Below are positions 1-10,758 of a stretch of 13,592 bases of DNA, in pieces; the stretch's first letter is position 1; every line of letters begins with the position of its first letter. Below the pieces are notes generated by a model, which was not told the DNA's origin, did not search any database, and worked only from the letters and a program-made list of their open reading frames with translations. Made by a program: the position numbers and the translations under genes. This DNA comes from a virus. Taxonomy: Duplodnaviria > Heunggongvirae > Uroviricota > Caudoviricetes. The stretch covers positions 1 to 13,592 of the IMG/VR virus record IMGVR_UViG_2778261231_000014; one strand, 5' to 3'.

Positions 1-291
1 ATGACGAAATGCGCTATCTTGCAATTTATCTGCGCTATCGAGCTTCGCTTCCAGTTCAGCGATTCGCTTCTCTGCGGTTTCCAACTCATCCAGCAGCGCC
101 AGCACGGTGGCGGGGTTGGCTGCGGCGATAAATGCAGCATCACGCGCTTCGTTTTCACTGAATACCATGGCTATTTGCTCATGGTTCACGCCGTCAGTGG
201 AGTAAATCTCATCGTCGAACTCAACAGCCCACCGGCCTTTCGTCGCCTTCTCCGCCGCTTCACGCAGAGCCTGGTAATTAATCTCGCTCAC
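1..291 (-). CDS. Ead/Ea22-like phage protein, partial (first 97 codons; 3' end runs off the window start)
   Basis: GTG start at 291-289 with AGGAGG about 6 nt upstream; 4-nt overlap with the stop of the upstream gene (288-290). Translation begins VSEINYQALREAAEKATKGRWAVEFDD..., which I recall as typical of the Ead/Ea22 family. The + strand ORF 1..492 is its antisense. Confidence 0.45.
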   Translation of the reverse strand, partial: MSEINYQALREAAEKATKGRWAVEFDDEIYSTDGVNHEQIAMVFSENEARDAAFIAAANPATVLALLDELETAEKRIAELEAKLDSADKLQDSAFRH

Positions 292-878
292 TGGTTGCCT
301 CCTTTGCGAAGCTGGGCGGCGATATCTTCGAGAACGCCATCAGAGAATGAGCGGTCAAAATCGCCTTCCGGCGCATTAGCCATAAACTCAGTAGAGGTAA
401 GAATCATCCTGGCAATATCCGCGGCGTTCTTTGCAGTATCATCAATAAAACCAGCTTCCCAGGCAGCCAGCATTCTGTTCGCCACAAAGTAAGCTCCCTC
501 CTTGCGTGCTTCAGTCTTCACTTCAGCCAGGAAAGCGTCGGTGGCTGGGGTTTTGTTATCTGACTCCAGCCACTGGTTGTAGTAATAATCGAACATGCCA
601 GTAGGATAACCACATCCGCTGTGCACGTGGTCTTTCATAGCAGAACCACACATGCAGTAGTCATTGTCAGTATTGCTAATGATGTCGATAAGTTGCTGTG
701 TCCGTTGCTTCAACATCGCATTCTCCGCAGCCAGCGCCGCGCATCTGGCTTTAAGCTCTGATAACGGGCCGGAAATCTTTTTGGTGGTCATGCCGATCAT
801 GGTGGCAATGCGAGCACTATTCAGGCCCGGGTTATTACGCAGGGCTGCAAGAATCTGCCCACGAATTGTTATGGTCAT
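288..878 (-). CDS. Hypothetical phage protein (196 aa) with a possible N-terminal winged-helix segment and a Cys/His cluster
   Basis: ATG at 878-876 preceded by AAGGGGG; ATGA start/stop overlap with the DnaC-like gene implies translational coupling. Contains CMCGSAMKDHVHSGC. Family not recognised with certainty. Confidence 0.6.
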   Translation of the reverse strand: MTITIRGQILAALRNNPGLNSARIATMIGMTTKKISGPLSELKARCAALAAENAMLKQRTQQLIDIISNTDNDYCMCGSAMKDHVHSGCGYPTGMFDYYYNQWLESDNKTPATDAFLAEVKTEARKEGAYFVANRMLAAWEAGFIDDTAKNAADIARMILTSTEFMANAPEGDFDRSFSDGVLEDIAAQLRKGGNQ

Positions 879-1729
879 GCTGCCCCCTTAGAACGGTAAG
901 AATCCCACGTGAATGACAGAGTGCACCCGCCGCCATCGCTCATGCGGTCAAGAACGCGCTCGCCGATGAATGCTGCCAGCTCTTCCCTTGTCTGGTTGCT
1001 GATCAGGATGGTCGGCTTCATCCGCTCGTACCGGGTGTTGATGATTTCGAACATGATCAGCTTCTCTGCTTCGCTGCCGAACTGGACGCCCACCTCATCG
1101 ATGATCAGCAGGTCCGGAGTGGTGAAGTGCGAAATCACGTCGTTCTCGCAGCGCGTCGCTGTTTTCGACCACGTTGATTTGAACTCACGGGCAATCTTCA
1201 GCGCCGTGGTGAAAATTACCGGGCTCTGGTGGTTCTCGATGACGTAGCGGGCGATCGCCAGGGCGAGGTGGTTTTTACCGGTTCCCGGCTTTCCGCACAT
1301 CACCAGCCCACCTCCCTGCTTCAGCCGCTCGGGCCACTTTGCGGCATAAGCCTGGCAAACACGCAGCGCGCGTTCTGACTCTTTGCCAACCGGCTGGTAG
1401 TTTTCCAGCGTGCACGTCACAAAGCGCTCGGGGATTTCGAGCTGGCGCAGCAGGCGGTCGATGTTCTGCTGGCGCGCGCGGTCTTCCCAGCGTTTTTTCT
1501 CTGCATACAGGAAGGTCAACTCATCGCGCAGGCAGCCCGGACAGCGAGTCGGCGGTGACGGTAGTTTTATCAGGCTGCTGGTAAGAACGCGTTTACGCTG
1601 TTCGTACTCGCCATGTTTCTCGCACAGCACTGTTTCGCAGACGGTCTCGCAGTTAGGGAGTTGCTCTGGAGGTCTACCAAGGACTTCCAGCATTTTTTCG
1701 ATAGCGTCGATTTTTTCGAGCAGTTCCAT
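875..1729 (-). CDS. DnaC-like replicative helicase loader (AAA+ ATPase, IstB/DnaC family; lambda P-position analog)
   Basis: Walker A GKPGTGKNHLALAIA and Walker B LLIIDEVG in the translation. Preferred start is ATG 1729-1727 with GAGGGA upstream, 2 nt after the O-like stop; the track ORF extends to 1747. Confidence 0.85.
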   Translation of the reverse strand: MELLEKIDAIEKMLEVLGRPPEQLPNCETVCETVLCEKHGEYEQRKRVLTSSLIKLPSPPTRCPGCLRDELTFLYAEKKRWEDRARQQNIDRLLRQLEIPERFVTCTLENYQPVGKESERALRVCQAYAAKWPERLKQGGGLVMCGKPGTGKNHLALAIARYVIENHQSPVIFTTALKIAREFKSTWSKTATRCENDVISHFTTPDLLIIDEVGVQFGSEAEKLIMFEIINTRYERMKPTILISNQTREELAAFIGERVLDRMSDGGGCTLSFTWDSYRSKGAA

Positions 1730-1731
1730 AC

Positions 1732-2601
1732 TCAGTCCCTCGCCCATGATGGGATTTCAGTCTGGCCGTAGTCTTTGCCAGCGAAGTTCTCGGATACGCG
1801 AGACTGATTGCGGGTAGGCTGCTTGGCGCCCTTAGGCTCAAACAATCCCTGCCAGCCGTTAGCGATGCTCTGGTTTATAATTTCTTCAGGCTGATATCCG
1901 CTGCACTTGCAACGCTCGAGCAGGTTGATGGCCTGGGTAACCGTCTGCTGAGACTTGATCGGTTTCTTCAGGTCGCGACGATAATCGACCCATGACTTCC
2001 AGACTGAAACTGACAGCCATTCAGGAAGGTCAACACCAGCCGGATCGAACGAAGCATGTTTGGGGGATTTAGGGGGTTTATTAATATTGTCTTTATTGTC
2101 TTTTGTAATAGTGTCTTTTGTGTGTCCCCATTTTGGTGACAGGGTTGTCACTGTTTTGGTGACACTTTTTGTCACCACCGTAGGGACACTGTCACTACCA
2201 TGGTGACAGTCACTACTATGGTGACATTTTGGCGCAGGCTTAGTGCCCGGAATTACCCACTCACTCAGGTTTTTGTTGGGCCCGATCAGCATGCCGTCGG
2301 ACACCAAAACATTCATCGCAATGAGTTCGTTTTTGGCAGCGTTAACCTTCTGGCGAGGTAGCCTGGTCAGCTCAGAAAGTTGTGAGTCTGCTATGCGGTC
2401 CATCTTCTTGTTGAACCCATAGGTTTTGCGGCAAACAGCATGAGCTACCTTGGCCTGATTTTTGGTCAGGTTCGCGCCGATAAGCTCCTCATACAACTCG
2501 TTTGCCAGACGGGTGTACCCATCGTCTGTATCGGCCACGCGTTGCTCCTGTATTCCCGAAACTACAGCGGGAAAGTTGAGAATTTCTGCGGTGTTTGACA
2601 T
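1732..2601 (-). CDS. Replication initiator protein, lambda O-like N-terminal domain
   Basis: N-terminus MSNTAEILNF...ADTDDGYTRLAN...LTKNQAKV...RKTYGFNKKMDRIADSQLSELTRLP...GPNKNLSEW closely follows the lambda O N-terminal domain as I remember it. ATG 2601-2599 with GGGAG RBS; the track ORF starts at an upstream in-frame GTG at 2628. Iterons lie inside the central linker. Confidence 0.85.
   Translation of the reverse strand: MSNTAEILNFPAVVSGIQEQRVADTDDGYTRLANELYEELIGANLTKNQAKVAHAVCRKTYGFNKKMDRIADSQLSELTRLPRQKVNAAKNELIAMNVLVSDGMLIGPNKNLSEWVIPGTKPAPKCHHSSDCHHGSDSVPTVVTKSVTKTVTTLSPKWGHTKDTITKDNKDNINKPPKSPKHASFDPAGVDLPEWLSVSVWKSWVDYRRDLKKPIKSQQTVTQAINLLERCKCSGYQPEEIINQSIANGWQGLFEPKGAKQPTRNQSRVSENFAGKDYGQTEIPSWARD
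2075..2230. repeat. ori-like element inside the O-like gene: four to five roughly 22-bp iterons plus an adjacent AT-rich tract
   Basis: Repeated units TTTTGGTGACAGGGTTGTCACTG / TTTTGGTGACACTTTTTGTCACC / ...GGGACACTGTCACTA / CCATGGTGACAGTCACTACT / ATGGTGACATTTT at 2131-2230; AT-rich tract with repeated ATTGTCTTT at about 2075-2130. Same layout as lambda ori inside O. Confidence 0.6.
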
Positions 2602-2604
2602 ACT
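2576..2604 (+). promoter_or_regulatory. Putative promoter for a short + strand (antisense) transcript: TTGAGA-17-CATACT
   Basis: -35-like TTGAGA at 2576-2581 and -10-like CATACT at 2599-2604 with 17-bp spacer. Weak match; proposed mainly because a strong + strand terminator lies about 70 nt downstream. Confidence 0.25.
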
Positions 2605-2640
2605 TACTCCCGTTACTTGCCGTAACACAGTGTGATAAGG

Positions 2641-2676
2641 GCCTTTGAAGTTACCGCTTCAAGGGCTTTTTCTTTT
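2641..2676 (+). terminator. Rho-independent terminator on the + strand, in the gap between the O-like and YdaT-like genes
   Basis: 10-bp stem GCCTTTGAAG / CTTCAAGGGC (one G-U pair), 6-nt loop, then TTTTTCTTTT. The U-tract is 3' only on the + strand, opposite to the local genes. Confidence 0.6.
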
Positions 2677-2686
2677 CTTGTGCCTC

Positions 2687-3229
2687 TCATATAACCCCCA
2701 ACATTGACGTGACCATCGTCATCAGCGGCCCTACCTGCTCCGGCATGAGGCGGAACAGCGACGCTATACCCTCGCTTACCTCTTTCAGCTTCTGATGCTC
2801 TGGAGCGCCCAGAAGCACTGCCTGCTTAGCTTCGGCACACTCTTTCATCGCGGATGCGATCAGCGACATCGTGTCGTTCTGTGGTGCAAGGCGGTTGCGA
2901 AATTCCAGTGGAAGTACCGCCATGATTGCGGGCGTCAGCTGGCGCACGTTCTCGCGGTACTGCTCAGAGTCGAAACGGTTATCCAGAAAGCGAAAAAGTT
3001 TCTGGCGCGCCCTGCTGATGTCTTCCGGGAAGCTGATGGCGGTACCGCCCTGCTCCCGGTATTCGTTGATGATCAGTGCCGAAACGACGTCCTGATTGTC
3101 CAGCGCCGAAGACCATGCCCGGACCGCATCGCGGATCTTTTCGTGGTCTGGCGCCGCCTTAGGTTGAGCGCGGTTTATCATCGCTCCCGGGTGTATTCCG
3201 GTATTGTGTTGATACGCAAGTGAATGCAT
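2687..3229 (-). CDS. YdaT-like regulatory protein (CII-position analog of Rac-type prophages)
   Basis: Sits immediately downstream of the cro-like gene. Motifs EYREQGG and LTPAIMAVLPLEFRNRL resemble Rac YdaT as I recall it. Start could be ATG 3229 or internal ATG 3181. Confidence 0.6.
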   Translation of the reverse strand: MHSLAYQHNTGIHPGAMINRAQPKAAPDHEKIRDAVRAWSSALDNQDVVSALIINEYREQGGTAISFPEDISRARQKLFRFLDNRFDSEQYRENVRQLTPAIMAVLPLEFRNRLAPQNDTMSLIASAMKECAEAKQAVLLGAPEHQKLKEVSEGIASLFRLMPEQVGPLMTMVTSMLGVI

Positions 3230-3258
3230 TGCTTTCCCTTTCGTGGTTAGGGCCGCCG

Positions 3259-3480
3259 TTAGGCGGCAAAGATACCTGGATATAGAACTTCGCGAGGAAG
3301 CCCCGTCACTTCTTCGTACTTACGCATTTTTGTTACTGGAAGGCTGCCACCTCGCTTTTTAAGCATATTGATGGCCTGTGGCGTTACGCCGACCTTTTCA
3401 GCAAGCACCTTTTGAGAGCCGCCCACTGCATTAATGGCTTTCTCAAGCGGGGTGCTTGCGTTGGATTCTTTGTTGATCAT
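3259..3480 (-). CDS. Cro/YdaS-like small HTH regulator (73 aa)
   Basis: HTH-like segment QKVLAEKVGVTPQAINMLKK; GGAG RBS 7 nt upstream of ATG 3480; divergent from the repressor gene across an operator region. Confidence 0.7.
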   Translation of the reverse strand: MINKESNASTPLEKAINAVGGSQKVLAEKVGVTPQAINMLKKRGGSLPVTKMRKYEEVTGLPREVLYPGIFAA

Positions 3481-3597
3481 GTTTTGCTCCGCTCATGTGT
3501 AATCAACACCATGTTAATTCATGATGTGGATTAAATCAACATTATGGTGATGGAAAAAATCCACATGTTGTTTACCATGCATGGAGCGGAGGGTTTT
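3481..3597. promoter_or_regulatory. Immunity operator/promoter region (OR-like) between the divergent cro-like and cI-like genes
   Basis: Four copies of AATC(A/C)ACA or its complement at 3501-3508, 3525-3532 (TGTGGATT), 3534-3541, 3558-3565. 3525-3541 forms an imperfect 17-bp palindrome TGTGGATTAAATCAACA. A leftward TTGATT-17-TAACAT promoter candidate lies on the - strand. Confidence 0.6.
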
Positions 3598-4308
3598 ATG
3601 AGTAGCATTTCTGAAAGAATTAAATTTTTACTGGCAAGGGAAGGCTTGAAGCAGCGGGATTTGGCTGAGGCTTTGTCGACTAGCCCACAGACCGTCAACA
3701 ACTGGATAAAAAGAGACGCGTTAAGTCGTGAGGCGGCGCAACAAATATCTGAAAAATTCGGTTATTCTCTTGACTGGTTATTAAATGGAGAGGGTTCTCC
3801 AAAGAAGGATCTGGAGAGCAACATCCCGCCAGAGTCTGAGTGGGGAGTTGTTGATGCATGGGATAAAGACACCCCGCTTCCTGTTGATGAGGTTGAAGTG
3901 CCATTTCTTAAGGATATTGAATTTGCGTGTGGTGATGGTCGAGTTCAGTGCGAAGACCACAATGGATTTAAGCTGAGATTCTCCAAGGCAACGCTCAGAA
4001 GAGTGGGTGCAAATAGTGATGGTTCTGGAGTGCTTTGCTTTCCCGCTTCTGGTGACAGCATGGAGCCCGTTATTCCTGACGGCGCAACGGTAGCAGTCGA
4101 TACAGGCAACAAGCGGATTATTGACGGCGAACTCTATGCTATTAACCAGGGCGATTTAAAGCGCATAAAGCAGCTTTATCGAAAGCCTGGTGGGAAGCTA
4201 TTAATACGAAGCATCAATCGCGATTATGACGATGAAGAGGCTGATGAGGCAGATGTCGAGATAATCGGTTTTGTGTTCTGGTACTCGGTATTGCGATATC
4301 GCCGATAA
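3598..4308 (+). CDS. CI-like phage repressor (N-terminal XRE-type HTH plus C-terminal S24/LexA-like peptidase)
   Basis: HTH RIKFLLAREGLKQRDLAEALSTSPQTVNNWIK; S24 signature GDSMEP and a downstream Lys (LKRIK). Start ATG 3598 with GGAGGG RBS; in-frame ATGs from 3544 exist but overlap the operators. Confidence 0.85.
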   Translation: MSSISERIKFLLAREGLKQRDLAEALSTSPQTVNNWIKRDALSREAAQQISEKFGYSLDWLLNGEGSPKKDLESNIPPESEWGVVDAWDKDTPLPVDEVEVPFLKDIEFACGDGRVQCEDHNGFKLRFSKATLRRVGANSDGSGVLCFPASGDSMEPVIPDGATVAVDTGNKRIIDGELYAINQGDLKRIKQLYRKPGGKLLIRSINRDYDDEEADEADVEIIGFVFWYSVLRYRR

Positions 4309-4457: not shown

Positions 4458-5219
4458 ATGACACAGTTTCAACTTGCATTAATCGCCAGAGAAGTTGATG
4501 GAGAAGTCATCCATCTTCGCACCAAAGACGGTTACATCAATGCCACCGCAATGTGCAAGTCTGCTGGGAAGCTACTTGCTGACTATACACGACTAAAAAC
4601 AACGCAAGATTTTTTTGATGAATTATCCCGCGATATGGGGATTCCCATATCGGAATTAATTCAATCATTTAAAGGCGGAAGAGCAGAGAATCAAGGGACT
4701 TGGGTTCATCCAGACATCGCAATTAACTTAGCTCAGTGGCTATCTCCAAAATTTGCAGTGCAAGTATCGAGATGGGTGCGTGAGTGGATGTCAGGCGAAA
4801 GAGCGCCTGCCGAACTCCCTATCCACCTTAAGCGGTATATGACAAACCGAGGCAGGGTTCCTCATACGCACTTTTCTATGCTTAATGAACTGACGTTTAA
4901 CCTGGTTGCGCCACTTGAGCAGGCAGGATATACGCTGCCAGAAAAAATGGTCCCTGATATTTCAGAAGGTAGGGTTTTCTCGCAATGGCTTCGTGAAAAC
5001 CGGGGTGTTGAGCCGAAGACGTTCCCAACATATAACCATGAGTACCCAGATGGCCGGACATTCCCGGTACGTCTATACCCAAACGAATATCTTGCAGATT
5101 TCAAACAACACTTCAACGAAGTGTGGCTGCCTCAGTACGCTCCTAAATATTTTGCAGAACGAGACCAAAGGGCATTGACGTTGATTGAGAAAATCATGTT
5201 GCCTGACCTTGATTCCTAA
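4458..5219 (+). CDS. KilA-N domain protein (253 aa) with an unassigned C-terminal domain
   Basis: N-terminal approximately 100 aa (INATAMCKSAGKLLADYTRLKTTQDFF...VHPDIAINLAQWLSPKFAVQVSRWV) fit the KilA-N/APSES-like fold. AGGA RBS; lower GC than the flanks. Confidence 0.65.
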   Translation: MTQFQLALIAREVDGEVIHLRTKDGYINATAMCKSAGKLLADYTRLKTTQDFFDELSRDMGIPISELIQSFKGGRAENQGTWVHPDIAINLAQWLSPKFAVQVSRWVREWMSGERAPAELPIHLKRYMTNRGRVPHTHFSMLNELTFNLVAPLEQAGYTLPEKMVPDISEGRVFSQWLRENRGVEPKTFPTYNHEYPDGRTFPVRLYPNEYLADFKQHFNEVWLPQYAPKYFAERDQRALTLIEKIMLPDLDS

Positions 5220-5227
5220 ATGTTATA

Positions 5228-5250
5228 CCCGGCCACCAAGCCGGGGTTTT
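5228..5250 (+). terminator. Putative intrinsic terminator after the KilA-N gene
   Basis: Stem CCCGGC / GCCGGG, loop CACCAA, followed by GTTTT. Sits between the convergent KilA-N and 65-aa genes. Confidence 0.4.
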
Positions 5251-5501: not shown

Positions 5502-5576
5502 AATCAACATAAAAATCAACAAGAAACGATTAAATCAACAAAATAAATCCACAAGGTGTTGACCTATAAATCCACA
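5502..5576. promoter_or_regulatory. Second operator-like cluster (OL-like): five direct copies of AATC(A/C)ACA
   Basis: AATCAACA at 5502, 5514, 5533; AATCCACA at 5546, 5569. Same motif family as the cI/cro intergenic region; the last copy lies between the -35 and -10 of the rightward promoter. Confidence 0.55.
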
Positions 5577-5587
5577 TGATGTTTAAT
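5559..5587 (+). promoter_or_regulatory. Putative early-left (pL-like) sigma70 promoter: TTGACC-17-TTTAAT
   Basis: TTGACC at 5559-5564, TTTAAT at 5582-5587, 17-bp spacer containing AAATCCACATGATG. Points toward the recombination-gene operon. Confidence 0.45.
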
Positions 5588-5633
5588 TATCCCATCGAAA
5601 CGAAACATCGACAGCTGAGCGAAGTTAGCCAGC

Positions 5634-5664
5634 GGCGGACAGCAAGTCGCCTGCTTTTTAACAA
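5634..5664 (+). promoter_or_regulatory. nut-like site in the leader: bulged hairpin followed by a boxA-like TGCTTTTTAACAA (alternatively a leader intrinsic terminator)
   Basis: Hairpin GGCG(G)AC-AGCAA-GTCGCC at 5634-5651, then TGCTTTTTAACAA at 5652-5664, which is one mismatch from the rrn boxA core TGCTCTTTAACAA as I recall it. Confidence 0.35.
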
Positions 5665-6003
5665 CATGCAGATTTACAGCGTCAATGACCTGTTAAGACC
5701 CCTACACGTAAACGTGCTGTATCACCGGGTGCGATCCGGTCGGTGAGAGAGTATCCCCGCGCGAGAGCGAGAACGGCGTGAGAACGGGCAACACTGGCAG
5801 GGAGTTGGCGCTGACCAATACAGGGAATGTTATGGGATGTGGTGAAGGGTTCATGGACGGGAATATGTCGCACGTAAAGCGGCGAGGCCCGAGGAGCTAT
5901 TGCCGAAGATAAGTAGGCCGAATCGGGTCGAAATGGGTCTCCCACCTACCACATCGCCAAAGCATTTCTCCCGCATCAGCGGGTAACGACAGAGGGTAAG
6001 GGG

Positions 6004-6300
6004 ATGATCGACGACATCAAGCGCATCGACTCAATGATAAATGCGCTTCGCAATATGAAACAGGACATCAAGCGTCAGCAGAAACTAAGTGAAATAAACA
6101 GTTTAGACCTGTCGCCGAAGCAAGCTCAAAAGCGCAATGCCGATGCTGACTGGATTGCGATGGAACAGATTAAGCGTCGGCATGAGCTGCACGCTCTGTC
6201 TGTTGAGCTTGGGTTCGCTGAGCGCCGGGAAAGTTATGCTCCATTTGAATTAACTGACGGGTGGCACCGATTCGACCACAAGCCGCGCGAACCTCAATAG
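6004..6300 (+). CDS. Hypothetical early protein (98 aa), first gene of the rightward early operon
   Basis: RBS AGGGTAAGGGG before ATG 6004; followed immediately by an intrinsic terminator. No family recognised. Confidence 0.55.
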   Translation: MIDDIKRIDSMINALRNMKQDIKRQQKLSEINSLDLSPKQAQKRNADADWIAMEQIKRRHELHALSVELGFAERRESYAPFELTDGWHRFDHKPREPQ

Positions 6301-6321
6301 CCGCCTAACCAGCGGCTTTTT
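6299..6321 (+). terminator. Rho-independent terminator after the first early gene
   Basis: Stem AGCCGC / GCGGCT, 7-nt loop, then TTTTT; overlaps the TAG stop at 6298-6300. Confidence 0.6.
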
Positions 6322-7228: not shown

Positions 7229-7368
7229 GCGAAAGCCCACCGAAGTGGGCCCGCCATGTCCGGCCTCACCGACCAAAGTTACACCGGAAACAACATTAAA
7301 ACCAAAGTTAACCCAATGGGCGCTATCAATGGTCCGGGGATTCTAACACCCAAAAATGAGGATCTCAC

Positions 7369-10300
7369 ATGGAATTCTTTAATGTGGTTAAAGCCACTCA
7401 GAAATCCGGAAAGCAAGATGCAGTGGTCTGGTTCACTGCTAAAACCGAGGCTCGCGCCAATCTGATGCTGGATGTTGCGCTGGAAGATGCAGGTATCGAA
7501 ACAGGTCGGGGTAAGGACTACGCCAAACCGATTCGCACTGATTTCCCAGTTGTCGACGGCCTGCCGAAAGAAGGTGAAGTTGATTTTACCTGGTGTGATC
7601 GCTACGAGCTTCAGGACGATGGGCGCACCTGGCTGCCAAAAGCCGCTGGTGTGTCTACTGGTTCCGTTGACGCCCCCTACACACCTACTCCGACCGTAAT
7701 CGTTGAAGATGCGACTGCGTCCGAAATTGTCCCGGTTGAAAACCGTACTCCAGCGGTCCGCTTTGCCGTCCATCTGATGAACGATAAATACCAAACCCAC
7801 GTCACTAAAGAGCAGCAGTTGGCTGCCAGCGAAATGTCACTGGATGAAGGCAATACATATCTCCATAGCCTGCTTGTGGCAAGGAACGATGTGCCCGCGA
7901 CCGCCAAACTCAGCCTGAATGCTGAGTGGAAAATGATTCGGGCGGTTAAGGACATTTTCACACCCGACGAAGAGCACGAACCAAGATTGATCGCTGCATT
8001 CATGTCTGACTGGGTGAACACCGATGCCGGTGACCGCAATCAACTGGTAGAAGACTGGCGCAGTGGTAAGTTGCAGTTGCTCAAAACTGAAACCAGCAAC
8101 GCTGCTGACGTTACAACGGGTCAAGATCTCACTGTTGAGGACGGTATCCAGACCGACGAGAACGGCCGGGCAGAAGGTGGCGTCGTTGATGGTGAAGTCG
8201 ATACCGAAGAGCAATCCCAGCAGACACAGCAACCGAACCTGATCGTTGTTGCCACCCTGCCATTCCGCCAGCGCGTACTGGCTCAGTTCATCGGTGATGG
8301 TGAATATCTCTATCACATCGACGCAGGGCAGAAAAATGAGATTGTCCGCCTTGAGATGGACACCGATGACGCGTACGTCCAGAACCTGCTGCTGGCAGCT
8401 GAGAATGTGGAAGCATTCAAAAAAGCCATTGAGCACGATATTCATAAAGTCGTGAATGCCGTTAAGAAAGTCTTCCCTGTCGATGGAAAAATCCCTGAAC
8501 TCGCAACCTTAATCCAGTTTTTGAAATTGTGGTTCGCTACAGATCACATCGACCGCGGTATCCTCGTTCGCGAATGGGCCGCCGGTAATCGCATCAGTAG
8601 TGTGCAGCGTACTGATTCCGGCACTAATGCCGACGGCGGTTACGTCACTGACCGTGGACCTGACGCACACCACACACTGGACACTCTCGATTTAGAGATT
8701 GCGTGTGCCCTTCTGCCTATGGACTTCAACCACTTCGAGATCCCGGGCAGCATTCTTCGTCGCGCTAAAGAAATCGTGACCAAAAAAGAAGAACCATGGA
8801 AATCATGGAGCAACATCCTGCGCAATCAGCCAGGCGTTCTGGGTGTTAACCGCACGGCTATTTTTAACCTGGTACGTATCGCACCGGAAAATATTCATTT
8901 AACTCCTGTCGCTCACCTGGAATTTGTTAACCAGACCATGACAGCCGCGTTCAATTCCGCGGTCGAGTTATTGCCGTTGCATGAGGCTGAACCCGCAGCA
9001 CAGGAAATTCCCCAACCTGAAGGTAAGGAGTCTCCGCGCAAATCCTTCTGCACTCACGAAGAGAACCTGCAACGCGTGCGTGAAGAAGGAGCACGCCGCC
9101 GCGCAGAGGAAGCGGCAGCACAACCGCAGAAAGTCGAACAAGAACTGGTTAAAAATGTCGGCAACGGAATATTCGACGTTACGGCTTTGCTGCAGAACTC
9201 AGCAACTCATGGCACGAAAAAGGCTACGGAGACCACCAGCAATGTGCAGGTTCAAGAAACTGTCAGTGATGAAAAACAAGCTGGTGATGAAGTACAGCCA
9301 GGCGAAAGCAGTCTGGAGTCTGGTGAAGAGTCAGATACCAGCCAGAAGGACGATGTAAACCAGAATACGGATTCTGTCGCCAAAAATAGCGATTCTGTAA
9401 GCCAAACCGAACCAGTTGCAGCACAAACCGAGCCAGAAGCGCAATCTGACGAACCGGCTGTTGTTTATCCCGCTTATTTCGAGCCAGGCCGCTATGAAGG
9501 GCTGCCAAACGAGGTTTACCACGCCGCCAACGGCATCAGCTCAACCCAGGTGAAAGATGCGCGCGTTTCGCTGATGTACTTCAATGCGCGCCACGTAGAG
9601 AAAACCATCGTCAAAGAGCGCTCAGCGGTGCTGGACATGGGCAACTTGGTGCATGCGCTGGCGTTGCAGCCTGAACTACTGGACGCAGAATTCAGCGTTG
9701 AACCGGTGATCCCTGAAGGCGCATTCACAACGGCCGCGACCCTGCGCGCCTTTATCGATGAGCACAATGCCAGCCTGCCGGCGCTGCTGTCTGCCGACGA
9801 CATCAAGGTGTTACTGGAAGAGTACAACGCCACCCTGCCGCCGCAGGTTCCGCTTGGCGCTAACCTGGAAGAAACGGCACAGAACTATATGGCGCTGCCA
9901 GCTGACTTCCAGCGTATTGATGGTGACCAGAAGCAGACGGCGACGGCAATGAAGGCATGCATTAAAGAGTACAACGCCACCCTGCCGCCGCCGGTTAAAA
10001 CCAGCGGCAGCCGTGACGCGCTGCTGGAGCAGTTGGCAATCATCAACCCTGACCTTGTGGCTCAGGAAGCACAGAAACCGGCACCACTGAAAGTGTCCGG
10101 TACCAAAGCAGACATGATCCAGGCCGTGAAGGCAGTCAAACCAGATGCCGTATTTGCCGACGAACTGCTGGATGCCTGGCGCGATAACCCGGAAGGAAAA
10201 GTGCTGGTCACCCGCCAGCAGCTGAGCACCGCGCTGAATATTCAAAAAGCGCTTCTGGCACACCCGACCGCCGGCATGCTGCTGACCCACCCTAGCCGAG

Positions 10301-10758
10301 CCGTTGAGGTGAGCTACTTTGGTTTTGACGAGGAGACGGGCTTGGAAGTTCGTGTGCGCCCTGACCTTGAGATCGACCTGGATGGCGTGCGTATAGGTGC
10401 AGACCTGAAAACCATCAGCATGTGGAATGTTAAGCAGGAAAGCCTGCGCGCCAGGCTACACCGGGAAATTATTGAACGTGATTATCACCTGAGCGCGGCT
10501 ATGTACTGCGAAACCGCAGCGCTGGATCAGTTCTTCTGGATTTTCGTCAACAAAGACGAGAACTACCACTGGATCGCCATCATCGAGGCATCCGCTGAAC
10601 TACTGGAGCTGGGTATGCTCGAGTACCGCAAAGCGATGCGCAATATCGCAACCGGATTCGACACAGGTGAATGGCCAGCGCCAATCACTGCTGACTACAC
10701 CGACGAACTGAACGACTTCGACCTGCGCCGCCTTGAAGCGCTGCGTACTCAGGCATAA
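7369..10758 (+). CDS. recE: RecE-like exonuclease VIII (1129 aa): long N-terminal region, acidic linker, C-terminal PD-(D/E)XK nuclease domain
   Basis: Single long ORF with GAGGA RBS. C-terminal RVRPDLEIDLDGVRIGADLKT fits a PD...(D/E)xK signature; N-terminal DFPVVDGLPKEGEVDFTW resembles what I recall of RecE. Directly followed by an annealing-protein gene. Confidence 0.7.
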   Translation: MEFFNVVKATQKSGKQDAVVWFTAKTEARANLMLDVALEDAGIETGRGKDYAKPIRTDFPVVDGLPKEGEVDFTWCDRYELQDDGRTWLPKAAGVSTGSVDAPYTPTPTVIVEDATASEIVPVENRTPAVRFAVHLMNDKYQTHVTKEQQLAASEMSLDEGNTYLHSLLVARNDVPATAKLSLNAEWKMIRAVKDIFTPDEEHEPRLIAAFMSDWVNTDAGDRNQLVEDWRSGKLQLLKTETSNAADVTTGQDLTVEDGIQTDENGRAEGGVVDGEVDTEEQSQQTQQPNLIVVATLPFRQRVLAQFIGDGEYLYHIDAGQKNEIVRLEMDTDDAYVQNLLLAAENVEAFKKAIEHDIHKVVNAVKKVFPVDGKIPELATLIQFLKLWFATDHIDRGILVREWAAGNRISSVQRTDSGTNADGGYVTDRGPDAHHTLDTLDLEIACALLPMDFNHFEIPGSILRRAKEIVTKKEEPWKSWSNILRNQPGVLGVNRTAIFNLVRIAPENIHLTPVAHLEFVNQTMTAAFNSAVELLPLHEAEPAAQEIPQPEGKESPRKSFCTHEENLQRVREEGARRRAEEAAAQPQKVEQELVKNVGNGIFDVTALLQNSATHGTKKATETTSNVQVQETVSDEKQAGDEVQPGESSLESGEESDTSQKDDVNQNTDSVAKNSDSVSQTEPVAAQTEPEAQSDEPAVVYPAYFEPGRYEGLPNEVYHAANGISSTQVKDARVSLMYFNARHVEKTIVKERSAVLDMGNLVHALALQPELLDAEFSVEPVIPEGAFTTAATLRAFIDEHNASLPALLSADDIKVLLEEYNATLPPQVPLGANLEETAQNYMALPADFQRIDGDQKQTATAMKACIKEYNATLPPPVKTSGSRDALLEQLAIINPDLVAQEAQKPAPLKVSGTKADMIQAVKAVKPDAVFADELLDAWRDNPEGKVLVTRQQLSTALNIQKALLAHPTAGMLLTHPSRAVEVSYFGFDEETGLEVRVRPDLEIDLDGVRIGADLKTISMWNVKQESLRARLHREIIERDYHLSAAMYCETAALDQFFWIFVNKDENYHWIAIIEASAELLELGMLEYRKAMRNIATGFDTGEWPAPITADYTDELNDFDLRRLEALRTQA

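Follow-up and report, generated by a model that had tools for sequence, protein, structure and literature searches.

In phage lambda, the spacer between cro and cII holds rutA, nutR and rutB. The module theory of lambdoid phages by Susskind and Botstein is said to include conserved boundary or linker sequences, and such sequences were reportedly also described between lambdoid modules in the 2001 work of Clark et al. on HK620. In E. coli, when the 5′-most segment of an operon is stabilized, its 3′ end is located directly past a stable hairpin that has no U-tract, as in the malE-malF case; many of these protective hairpins extend into coding sequence, and they are shared with related genera and have elevated conservation at wobble positions (PMC5927463), and rut sites follow them (PMC6061677). 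Inverted repeats at the ydaS-ydaT junction serve as binding sites for the YdaT proteins of Rac and CP-933P, and the published YdaT box is TTGATT-N6-AATCAA (PMC9986795, PMC11879457).

The window, by which we mean the whole stretch of 13,592 nucleotides analyzed here (IMG/VR record IMGVR_UViG_2778261231_000014), is the early region of a phi80-like lambdoid phage. Positions 2687-3600 were 91.6% identical to the cII/gene 30 (cro)/cI region of phi80, and parts of the same segment were 95% identical to HK225. The gene layout was assigned from Pfam and the phi80 annotation (Table 1). A long hairpin followed by a T-run was present on the plus strand at 2637-2670, opposite the cII/O junction, where phi80 has M3 RNA (the oop homologue). 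A gene with a KilA-N domain was located between cI and pL (4458-5245, plus strand) and had its own terminator at 5228-5245; its slot is that of phi80 gene 40A, and it is a swapped, moron-type insert at the rex position.

Table 1. Features of the early region, in window coordinates
Feature	Position	Strand	Remark
cI	3598-4308	+	
cro-like gene	3259..3480	-	phi80 gene 30 homologue, 73 aa, HTH_3 / YdaS family
cII gene	2687..3229	-	YdaT family, 180 aa
O-like gene	2628->1732	-	pR operon
DnaC/IstB-like loader	1747->875	-	pR operon
pL	near 5550-5590	+	
nutL boxA	5652-5664	+	TGCTTTTTAACAA; sole boxA in the window
phi80-annotated "nutL core"	5705-5716	+	CACGTAAACGTG
N	6004-6300	+	
tL1A-type intrinsic terminator	6299..6317	+	at N stop; AGCCGC-CUAACCA-GCGGCU then U5
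Leader hairpin	5634-5651		GGCG-GACAGCAAGU-CGCC; boxA immediately 3′
cro-end stem-loop	3252..3267	-	on the pR transcript; conserved, ~180 loci; RNAalifold consensus helix
5′ arm	3267->3262	-	GCCGCC; last two cro codons GCC GCC (Ala-Ala)
Loop	3261->3258	-	UAAC
cro stop codon	3259..3261	-	UAA; first three loop bases
3′ arm	3257->3252	-	GGCGGC; non-coding
Single-stranded spacer	3243..3251	-	CCUAACCAC; C/A-rich, G-free, directly 3′ of the stem
cII ribosome-binding region	3230..3242	-	GAAAGGGAAAGCA
First 23 nt of YdaT-type cII	3207..3229	-	ATGCATTCACTTGCGTATCAACA; far edge of the conserved island 3207-3267

An earlier note on this DNA had described a palindrome at 3252-3267 that covers the last codons and the stop of the cro-like gene and lies between this gene and the YdaT-like gene. 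Its description was accurate. The arms and loop were read directly as gccgcc (3252-3257), gtta (3258-3261) and ggcggc (3262-3267), the two Ala codons form the 5′ arm with UAA in the loop, and cII starts at 3229 on the minus strand, 22 nt past the 3′ arm. The form in the pR (minus-strand) RNA is GCCGCC-UAAC-GGCGGC, with a free energy of -11.6 kcal/mol when folded alone. The centroid fold of a 121-nt context kept only the 6-bp hairpin and one long-range helix (z = -0.81 for the context fold). When random sequences were drawn from the window's first-order (dinucleotide) statistics, a perfect 6-bp hairpin of G and C only occurred in 33% of the trials, with a mean of 0.47 per window, and a single such hairpin in 13.6 kb is within chance expectation. 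Since the lone hairpin is not significant, its reality was judged by comparison with other phages. No match to an Rfam covariance model was found in 3100-3500 at the gathering score or at E<=10. The exact 16-mer was also present in about 20 unrelated viral contigs, in some of them as an ordinary terminator (L205, L185, L175), and by our own estimate this is about the number expected by chance for that collection. Part of the junction was also directly repeated (CCTAA-GGCGGC-...-ACCACGAAA) within cII, in codons 22-31 (about 3137-3163, minus strand); this repeat occurs in only one cII allele and not in phi80 and is therefore probably due to chance.

The hairpin occupies the same place in the pR operon as lambda nutR and tR1, directly after cro, and in both phages it is followed by C/A-rich RNA (...AAACCACACC in lambda, CCUAACCAC here). 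The placement proposed in the earlier note is correct as to location, whereas identity as a nut site does not hold: in contrast to lambda, the hairpin in the window has no boxA, no GNRA-like pentaloop, no twin at nutL and no linkage to N, and the cro-cII spacer is 29 nt compared to 118 nt in lambda. Relatives with the same cII family fill this slot in several ways. A lambda boxA and boxB (GCCCTGAAAAAGGGC) was present in the cro-cII spacer of L143, a relative with a YdaT-type cII, and a boxA (CGCTCTTTAACA) with a hairpin in those of L151 and L152, the loop being GUAA in L152; these three nutR cassettes lie about 100 nt upstream of locus position 3001. Phage IdasGreatGrand has a boxA in its cro-cII spacer (L252, 1031-1099), and mEp237 and Klebsiella phages have no hairpin and a cro-cII spacer of just 2 nt. 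The compact GC hairpin is therefore one of several alternative cassettes, and the phi80-type cro-cII spacer should not be annotated as nutR or tR1. The 1988 record of the phi80 early region (X13065, L003) contains a frameshift within cII relative to the 2012 genome (JX871397, L002), and its cII translation breaks after ...PGHDK; this frameshift probably accounts for the old 132-aa cII annotation and for the apparent 173-bp spacer between gene 30 and cII.

The comparison across phages indicates that the hairpin is a real, selected RNA element that is strongly conserved in phi80-like phages. Conservation, which the earlier note had made a check on the hairpin, was found in about 180 phage and prophage loci; the loci are linked by common descent and by recombination, and nearby sequence served as the anchor for two of the three samples, so that these counts and those that follow do not represent independent events. 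The first sample comprised 127 viral or prophage loci chosen solely by the 21-mer of the cII ribosome-binding site and start, CACGAAAGGGAAAGCAATGCA. There were 63 distinct 70-mers upstream of it, all of which converged on GCCGC[C/T]-stop-GGCGGC-CCTAAC. Within a set of 144 loci, a perfect GCCGC...GCGGC core was found in 136, the exceptions being point variants of single loci, and the 48-nt junction folded at a mean of -12.4 kcal/mol compared to -7.2 kcal/mol for shuffles. The second sample used the cII protein as its anchor and was limited to a single genome for each species; the hairpin was present in 19 of its 32 loci. None of these 19 showed a change at the 10 core stem positions, and the outer pair was changed once, in L167, in a manner compatible with a G.U wobble; the 9-nt spacer adjoining the stem differed in 9 of the 19 and was more variable than the stem. 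The third sample pooled 182 loci. Their Cro proteins fell into 6 clusters without similarity at 30% identity (8 at 50% and 11 at 70%), and every one of the 182 ended in Ala-Ala, regardless of family.

Alignment information was 0.1-1 bit per site over the 60 nt upstream, rose abruptly to 2 bits where the 5′ arm begins and remained at about 1.9 bits across the UTR and 23 nt into cII; it dropped beyond this point, where the three cII alleles diverge. The loops varied in sequence and in length, from 4 to 8 nt (UAAC, UAACC, UGACC, UAAUC, UAAUU, UGAUU, UGACA, UAAA and GUGAUACU). The stop codon (TAA or TGA) was within the loop in all canonical variants, and in one Cro family, with GCCGC-GUGAUACU-GCGGC, it was just past the stem. 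At its wobble position, the last Ala codon had C in 44, U in 60, A in 1 and G in 1 of the 106 canonical unique sequences; C and U both pair with the opposite G, and the U.G variants hold 6 bp only in the sense RNA. The RNAalifold consensus was the cro-end helix, with 92.7% of the cells paired, broken variants included. True compensatory double changes came from one locus only, L168, which carries a different 7-bp hairpin (UCACCAU-AUUC-AUGGUGA) at the same place and a Cro ending in ...PPITL; no second instance of this alternative hairpin was found in the viral contigs. Because the arms are invariant and do not co-vary, compensatory covariation was nearly absent, and selection acting on sequence instead of structure is formally still compatible with the data. 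The evidence is of a kind other than classical covariation, namely that the arms are kept, the loop is free and the hairpin has been replaced once.

The hairpin also persisted when its downstream neighbors changed. It was retained in L153, L171, phage D2 and L167 though the UTR and the 5′ end of cII had diverged, and in L176, L184 and L202 it stood, followed by C[C/A]TAACCA, ahead of a gene for a 73-aa lambda-type CII (METLTTRNKAEARRIES...); the spacer CCUAACCAC accompanied the hairpin even with this type of downstream gene. The synonymous sites in the first 23 nt of cII (3207-3229, minus strand, MHSLAYQ...) were also conserved across the three divergent alleles, at nearly 2 bits per site. This suggests a constraint at the nucleic acid level, for example a translation initiation region or a site related to CII and pRE. 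Neither a scan nor inspection by eye detected sigma-70-like hexamers of a pRE-like promoter on the plus strand of the conserved island.

We consider the hairpin best filed as a probable new member of the class of 3′-protective intercistronic hairpins. Our leading explanation, held tentatively and at somewhat less than an even chance, is that it is a protective hairpin of the malE-malF or Dar-Sorek type that doubles as a linker for module exchange. The properties described for the E. coli hairpins (PMC5927463) were found here: the stem-loop is stable, rich in G and C and without a U-tract, it lies at the 3′ boundary of cro, the 5′-most gene of the pR operon, it overlaps coding sequence, and it is conserved with constrained wobble positions. 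As in that class, C-rich RNA follows, here the G-free C/A-rich stretch 3′ of the hairpin. The phi80-type hairpin differs in that its stem is just 6 bp with the stop codon in the loop and in that it lies at a phage mosaic breakpoint.

Under the protective reading, the cII-O-P part of the transcript would be cut by an endonuclease, or transcription would be ended downstream by Rho. The 3′->5′ exonucleases PNPase and RNase II would then degrade the RNA back and halt at the stem, which would leave a stable cro-only RNA that ends just past 3252. Cro output would thereby be uncoupled from, and favored over, CII output, the same result that lambda attains via tR1. In phi80, neither a terminator nor a nutR is annotated in the pR operon before Q, and the window likewise has none, which leaves room for such a decay-based mechanism. 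The stem would in addition serve as a homology patch for exchange of cro/immunity modules, because it is under selection and the sequence upstream is free to vary, and an incoming cro gene would adopt GCC-GCY-UAA as Ala-Ala-stop. Each ribosome that finishes cro melts the 5′ arm, which speaks against protection. Many relatives lack the hairpin, such as mEp237 and the Klebsiella phages, and its role would therefore be modulatory and not essential. If protection is the function, the phi80-like group sets the Cro:CII ratio, which is the heart of the lysis-lysogeny decision, by shielding the cro message from decay, and so differs from the termination-antitermination route of lambda nutR/tR1.

A linker role could also be the whole explanation. 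The hairpin would then be a pure recombination linker or "portable stop" adaptor without a role in gene expression, persisting as a patch of homology for cro/immunity exchange or as a palindrome that itself stimulates exchange. BLAST alignments with E. coli genomes and phages stopped at query 581/582, equal to window 3267/3268 and the outer edge of the stem, and the 71-bp piece 3197-3267 was 94-98% identical in phages that were otherwise unalignable. Upstream of this edge stand the 6 unrelated Cro clusters, and downstream any of three YdaT-type alleles or a lambda-type cII. For all 6 Cro families the 5′ base of the stem is the exact point at which homology begins, so that the hairpin is a practical crossover patch for cro/immunity modules; the homology extends to CCTAACCA in some cases and to cII codon 8 in others. 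The invariance of the arms, which do not co-vary, agrees with this reading as well. However, in a neutral patch the 3′ arm, which is non-coding, would not be better conserved than the spacer beside it, the arms would not stay constant as the loop alters in length and sequence, and the hairpin would not be swapped for a different one as in L168. Like the boundary sequences of other lambdoid phages, the hairpin is a short conserved stretch between non-homologous alternative modules in many phages; unlike them, it is a defined hairpin, and its arms are conserved more strongly than the loop and the spacer, which points to a function beyond homology. We regard the pure linker as unlikely. Something must maintain the patch, and a linker role is compatible with a functional hairpin and is probably its consequence. 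If the proposed protective role holds, a selected hairpin of 16 nt supplies both homology and a built-in stop codon to any arriving cro gene, and this would be a concrete, testable example of why the breakpoints of lambdoid mosaics are so sharp.

A related hairpin stands in the other early operon. The tL1A-type hairpin, (A)GCCGC-CUAACCA-GCGGC(U)-U5-6, and the cro hairpin have the 10-mer GCCGCCUAAC in common, and a terminator of this type was located 1.9-3.6 kb from the cro hairpin in ~24 of roughly 70 loci for which sufficient sequence was available. Of the ORFs upstream of it, at least 12 unrelated ones ended ...Ala-Ala-UAA inside it, and others stopped just before. The recurrence of the 5′ arm and loop (GCCGCCTAAC) at the tL1 junction, with these Ala-Ala-TAA endings, again favors a linker. 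The tL1A-type terminator (window 6299-6317; L119, L120, L128, L131, L134 and others) is thus also an exact mosaic junction with a "borrowed" stop codon. The cro hairpin resembles phi80 tL1A (JX871397) in the shared 10-mer and in its location, as each lies at or across the stop codon of the gene that opens an early operon; both are also mosaic junctions, with unrelated ORFs upstream that terminate in Ala-Ala-UAA within the hairpin. The two differ in that tL1A has a tract of 5-6 U and a 7-nt loop, whereas the cro hairpin has no U-tract and must allow transcription onward into cII, O and P.

These likenesses raise a broader idea, which we put forward as speculative and rather unlikely: in phi80-like lambdoid phages, "junction hairpins" of one family (GCCGCC-UAA...GCGGC) might follow the first gene in each of the two early operons and act as universal module adaptors. 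The copy after the gene in the N position would have a U-tract (tL1) and the copy after cro none. Any gene recombined upstream would gain Ala-Ala-stop, potentially an ssrA-like degradation signal, together with a defined RNA 3′ end that resists exonucleases, and it would be the adaptor, not the gene, that determines how much of the two decision proteins is made. The hairpins would also be preferred crossover points behind the mosaicism of the immunity region.

A direct role in termination was judged improbable. The earlier note had seen no U-tract and had not taken the hairpin for an intrinsic terminator, and we agree on both points: past the stem the minus strand continues with CCCUAACCACG and the plus strand with AAAGAUACC, and the hairpin was absent from the terminator scan. 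Despite the 6-bp stem of G and C only, the lack of a U-tract means that it is not an intrinsic terminator. It could still be a factor-dependent pause site or partial terminator, that is, a true equivalent of tR1 that pauses RNA polymerase or acts with Rho, NusA or NusG, so that part of pR transcription would end before cII. It sits at the tR1 position of lambda, it has 10 nt in common with tL1A, a genuine terminator after the first gene of the other early operon, and the C/A-rich, G-free RNA 3′ of the stem is reminiscent of the rut sites that follow protective hairpins in E. coli. Against this, the stem is followed by a G/C-rich hybrid, CCCUAACC, in place of a U-tract, boxA is absent, and the phi80 and HK639 pR operons have no annotated nutR or putR with which such a terminator could be overcome. 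The untranslated RNA past the stem is 22 nt, of which the first 9 are C/A-rich and G-free, far short of a tR1-type rut site of ~60-80 nt. The hairpin may be tR1-like in a weaker sense, as a U-tract-less hairpin that sets the 3′ end of a cro-only RNA.

Translational coupling was given an equally small chance, and this estimate is a joint one for two variants. Ribosomes that stop at the UAA in the loop would melt the hairpin and re-initiate at cII 29 nt downstream, or else the hairpin would insulate or unmask a weak cII ribosome-binding site. The stop codon does lie in the loop, and cII starts 19-22 nt past the stem in all YdaT-type junctions, including those with a diverged UTR; the hairpin-less relatives have cro and cII 2 nt apart, a classic coupled arrangement. 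The spacing is, however, 32 nt ahead of lambda-type cII genes. The MFE fold pairs CCCU with AGGG of the SD, but this pairing is lost in phi80 (CUCU, AUGG). Across 77 natural contexts, the predicted SD-AUG accessibility was 0.50, compared to 0.49 and 0.51 when either arm was disrupted in silico. Masking or insulation of the SD was rejected, as these arm mutants left the predicted accessibility of the cII TIR unchanged. By this modeling, a translational role appears less likely than a protective one.

C-terminal Ala-Ala can be part of an ssrA-like signal for ClpXP or a Tsp signal. Selection might act on the protein, with GCC-GCY providing Cro with such a protease tag and the palindrome being secondary, but we consider this very improbable. 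That all 182 junction Cro proteins end in AA whatever their family, as do many unrelated proteins upstream of the tL1-type hairpin, is what a tag would predict. A tag leaves unexplained why the wobble base is restricted to C or U and why the 3′ arm, which is non-coding, is conserved. In L168, whose Cro belongs to the cluster 3 family, the hairpin follows the stop codon, and it was kept although AA was lost; Cro proteins at hairpin-less junctions were not AA-terminated. The Ala-Ala ending is best seen as a by-product of the hairpin sequence, and it may still act as a degradation tag.

The idea that the palindrome is a nutR boxB for phage N or a DNA site for a dimeric protein such as a YdaT-type CII is close to refuted and was given only a very slight chance: its position agrees with nutR and YdaT proteins do bind inverted repeats at the corresponding junction, but the half-sites are spaced 4, 5, 7 or 8 bp apart, which is incompatible with a fixed dimer site, the hairpin occurs with three divergent YdaT-type cII alleles and a lambda-type CII and with unrelated cI, Cro and CII specificities, and neither a boxA nor inheritance together with N was found. 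A YdaT/CII operator was rejected separately, the published box being absent and unrelated and the variable arm spacing arguing against a dimer site.

The earlier note had also seen no obvious boxA and had not regarded the hairpin as a canonical nutR. Exact and degenerate searches of the minus strand at 1-3600 detected no boxA-like motif, nutL has no matching hairpin, and no second copy of the phi80 nutL core CACGTAAACGTG was found in the window. The suggested comparison with the leader hairpin at 5634-5651 yielded nothing in common, as both stem and loop are different. Among about 140 hairpin loci, many with >5 kb of left-operon sequence, a phi80-type N was detected by tblastn only in the window, phi80 and L067; these three have a 100% identical N and different loops (UAAC, UAACC and GUGAUACU, respectively). 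HK639 carries the hairpin and is annotated with putL antiterminator RNA and no N. The phi80 record has an annotated nutL, no nutR and no terminator between pR and Q, and our search of the literature for a phi80 nutR found nothing relevant. With no boxA, no nutL twin and no link to N, identity as nutR or boxB was rejected.

Elsewhere in the window, a match to Rfam isrB, an Hfq-binding sRNA, was detected on the minus strand at 7230-7327 (38.2 bits, compared to a gathering score of 35), just upstream of an ORF of 1129 aa at 7369-10758.
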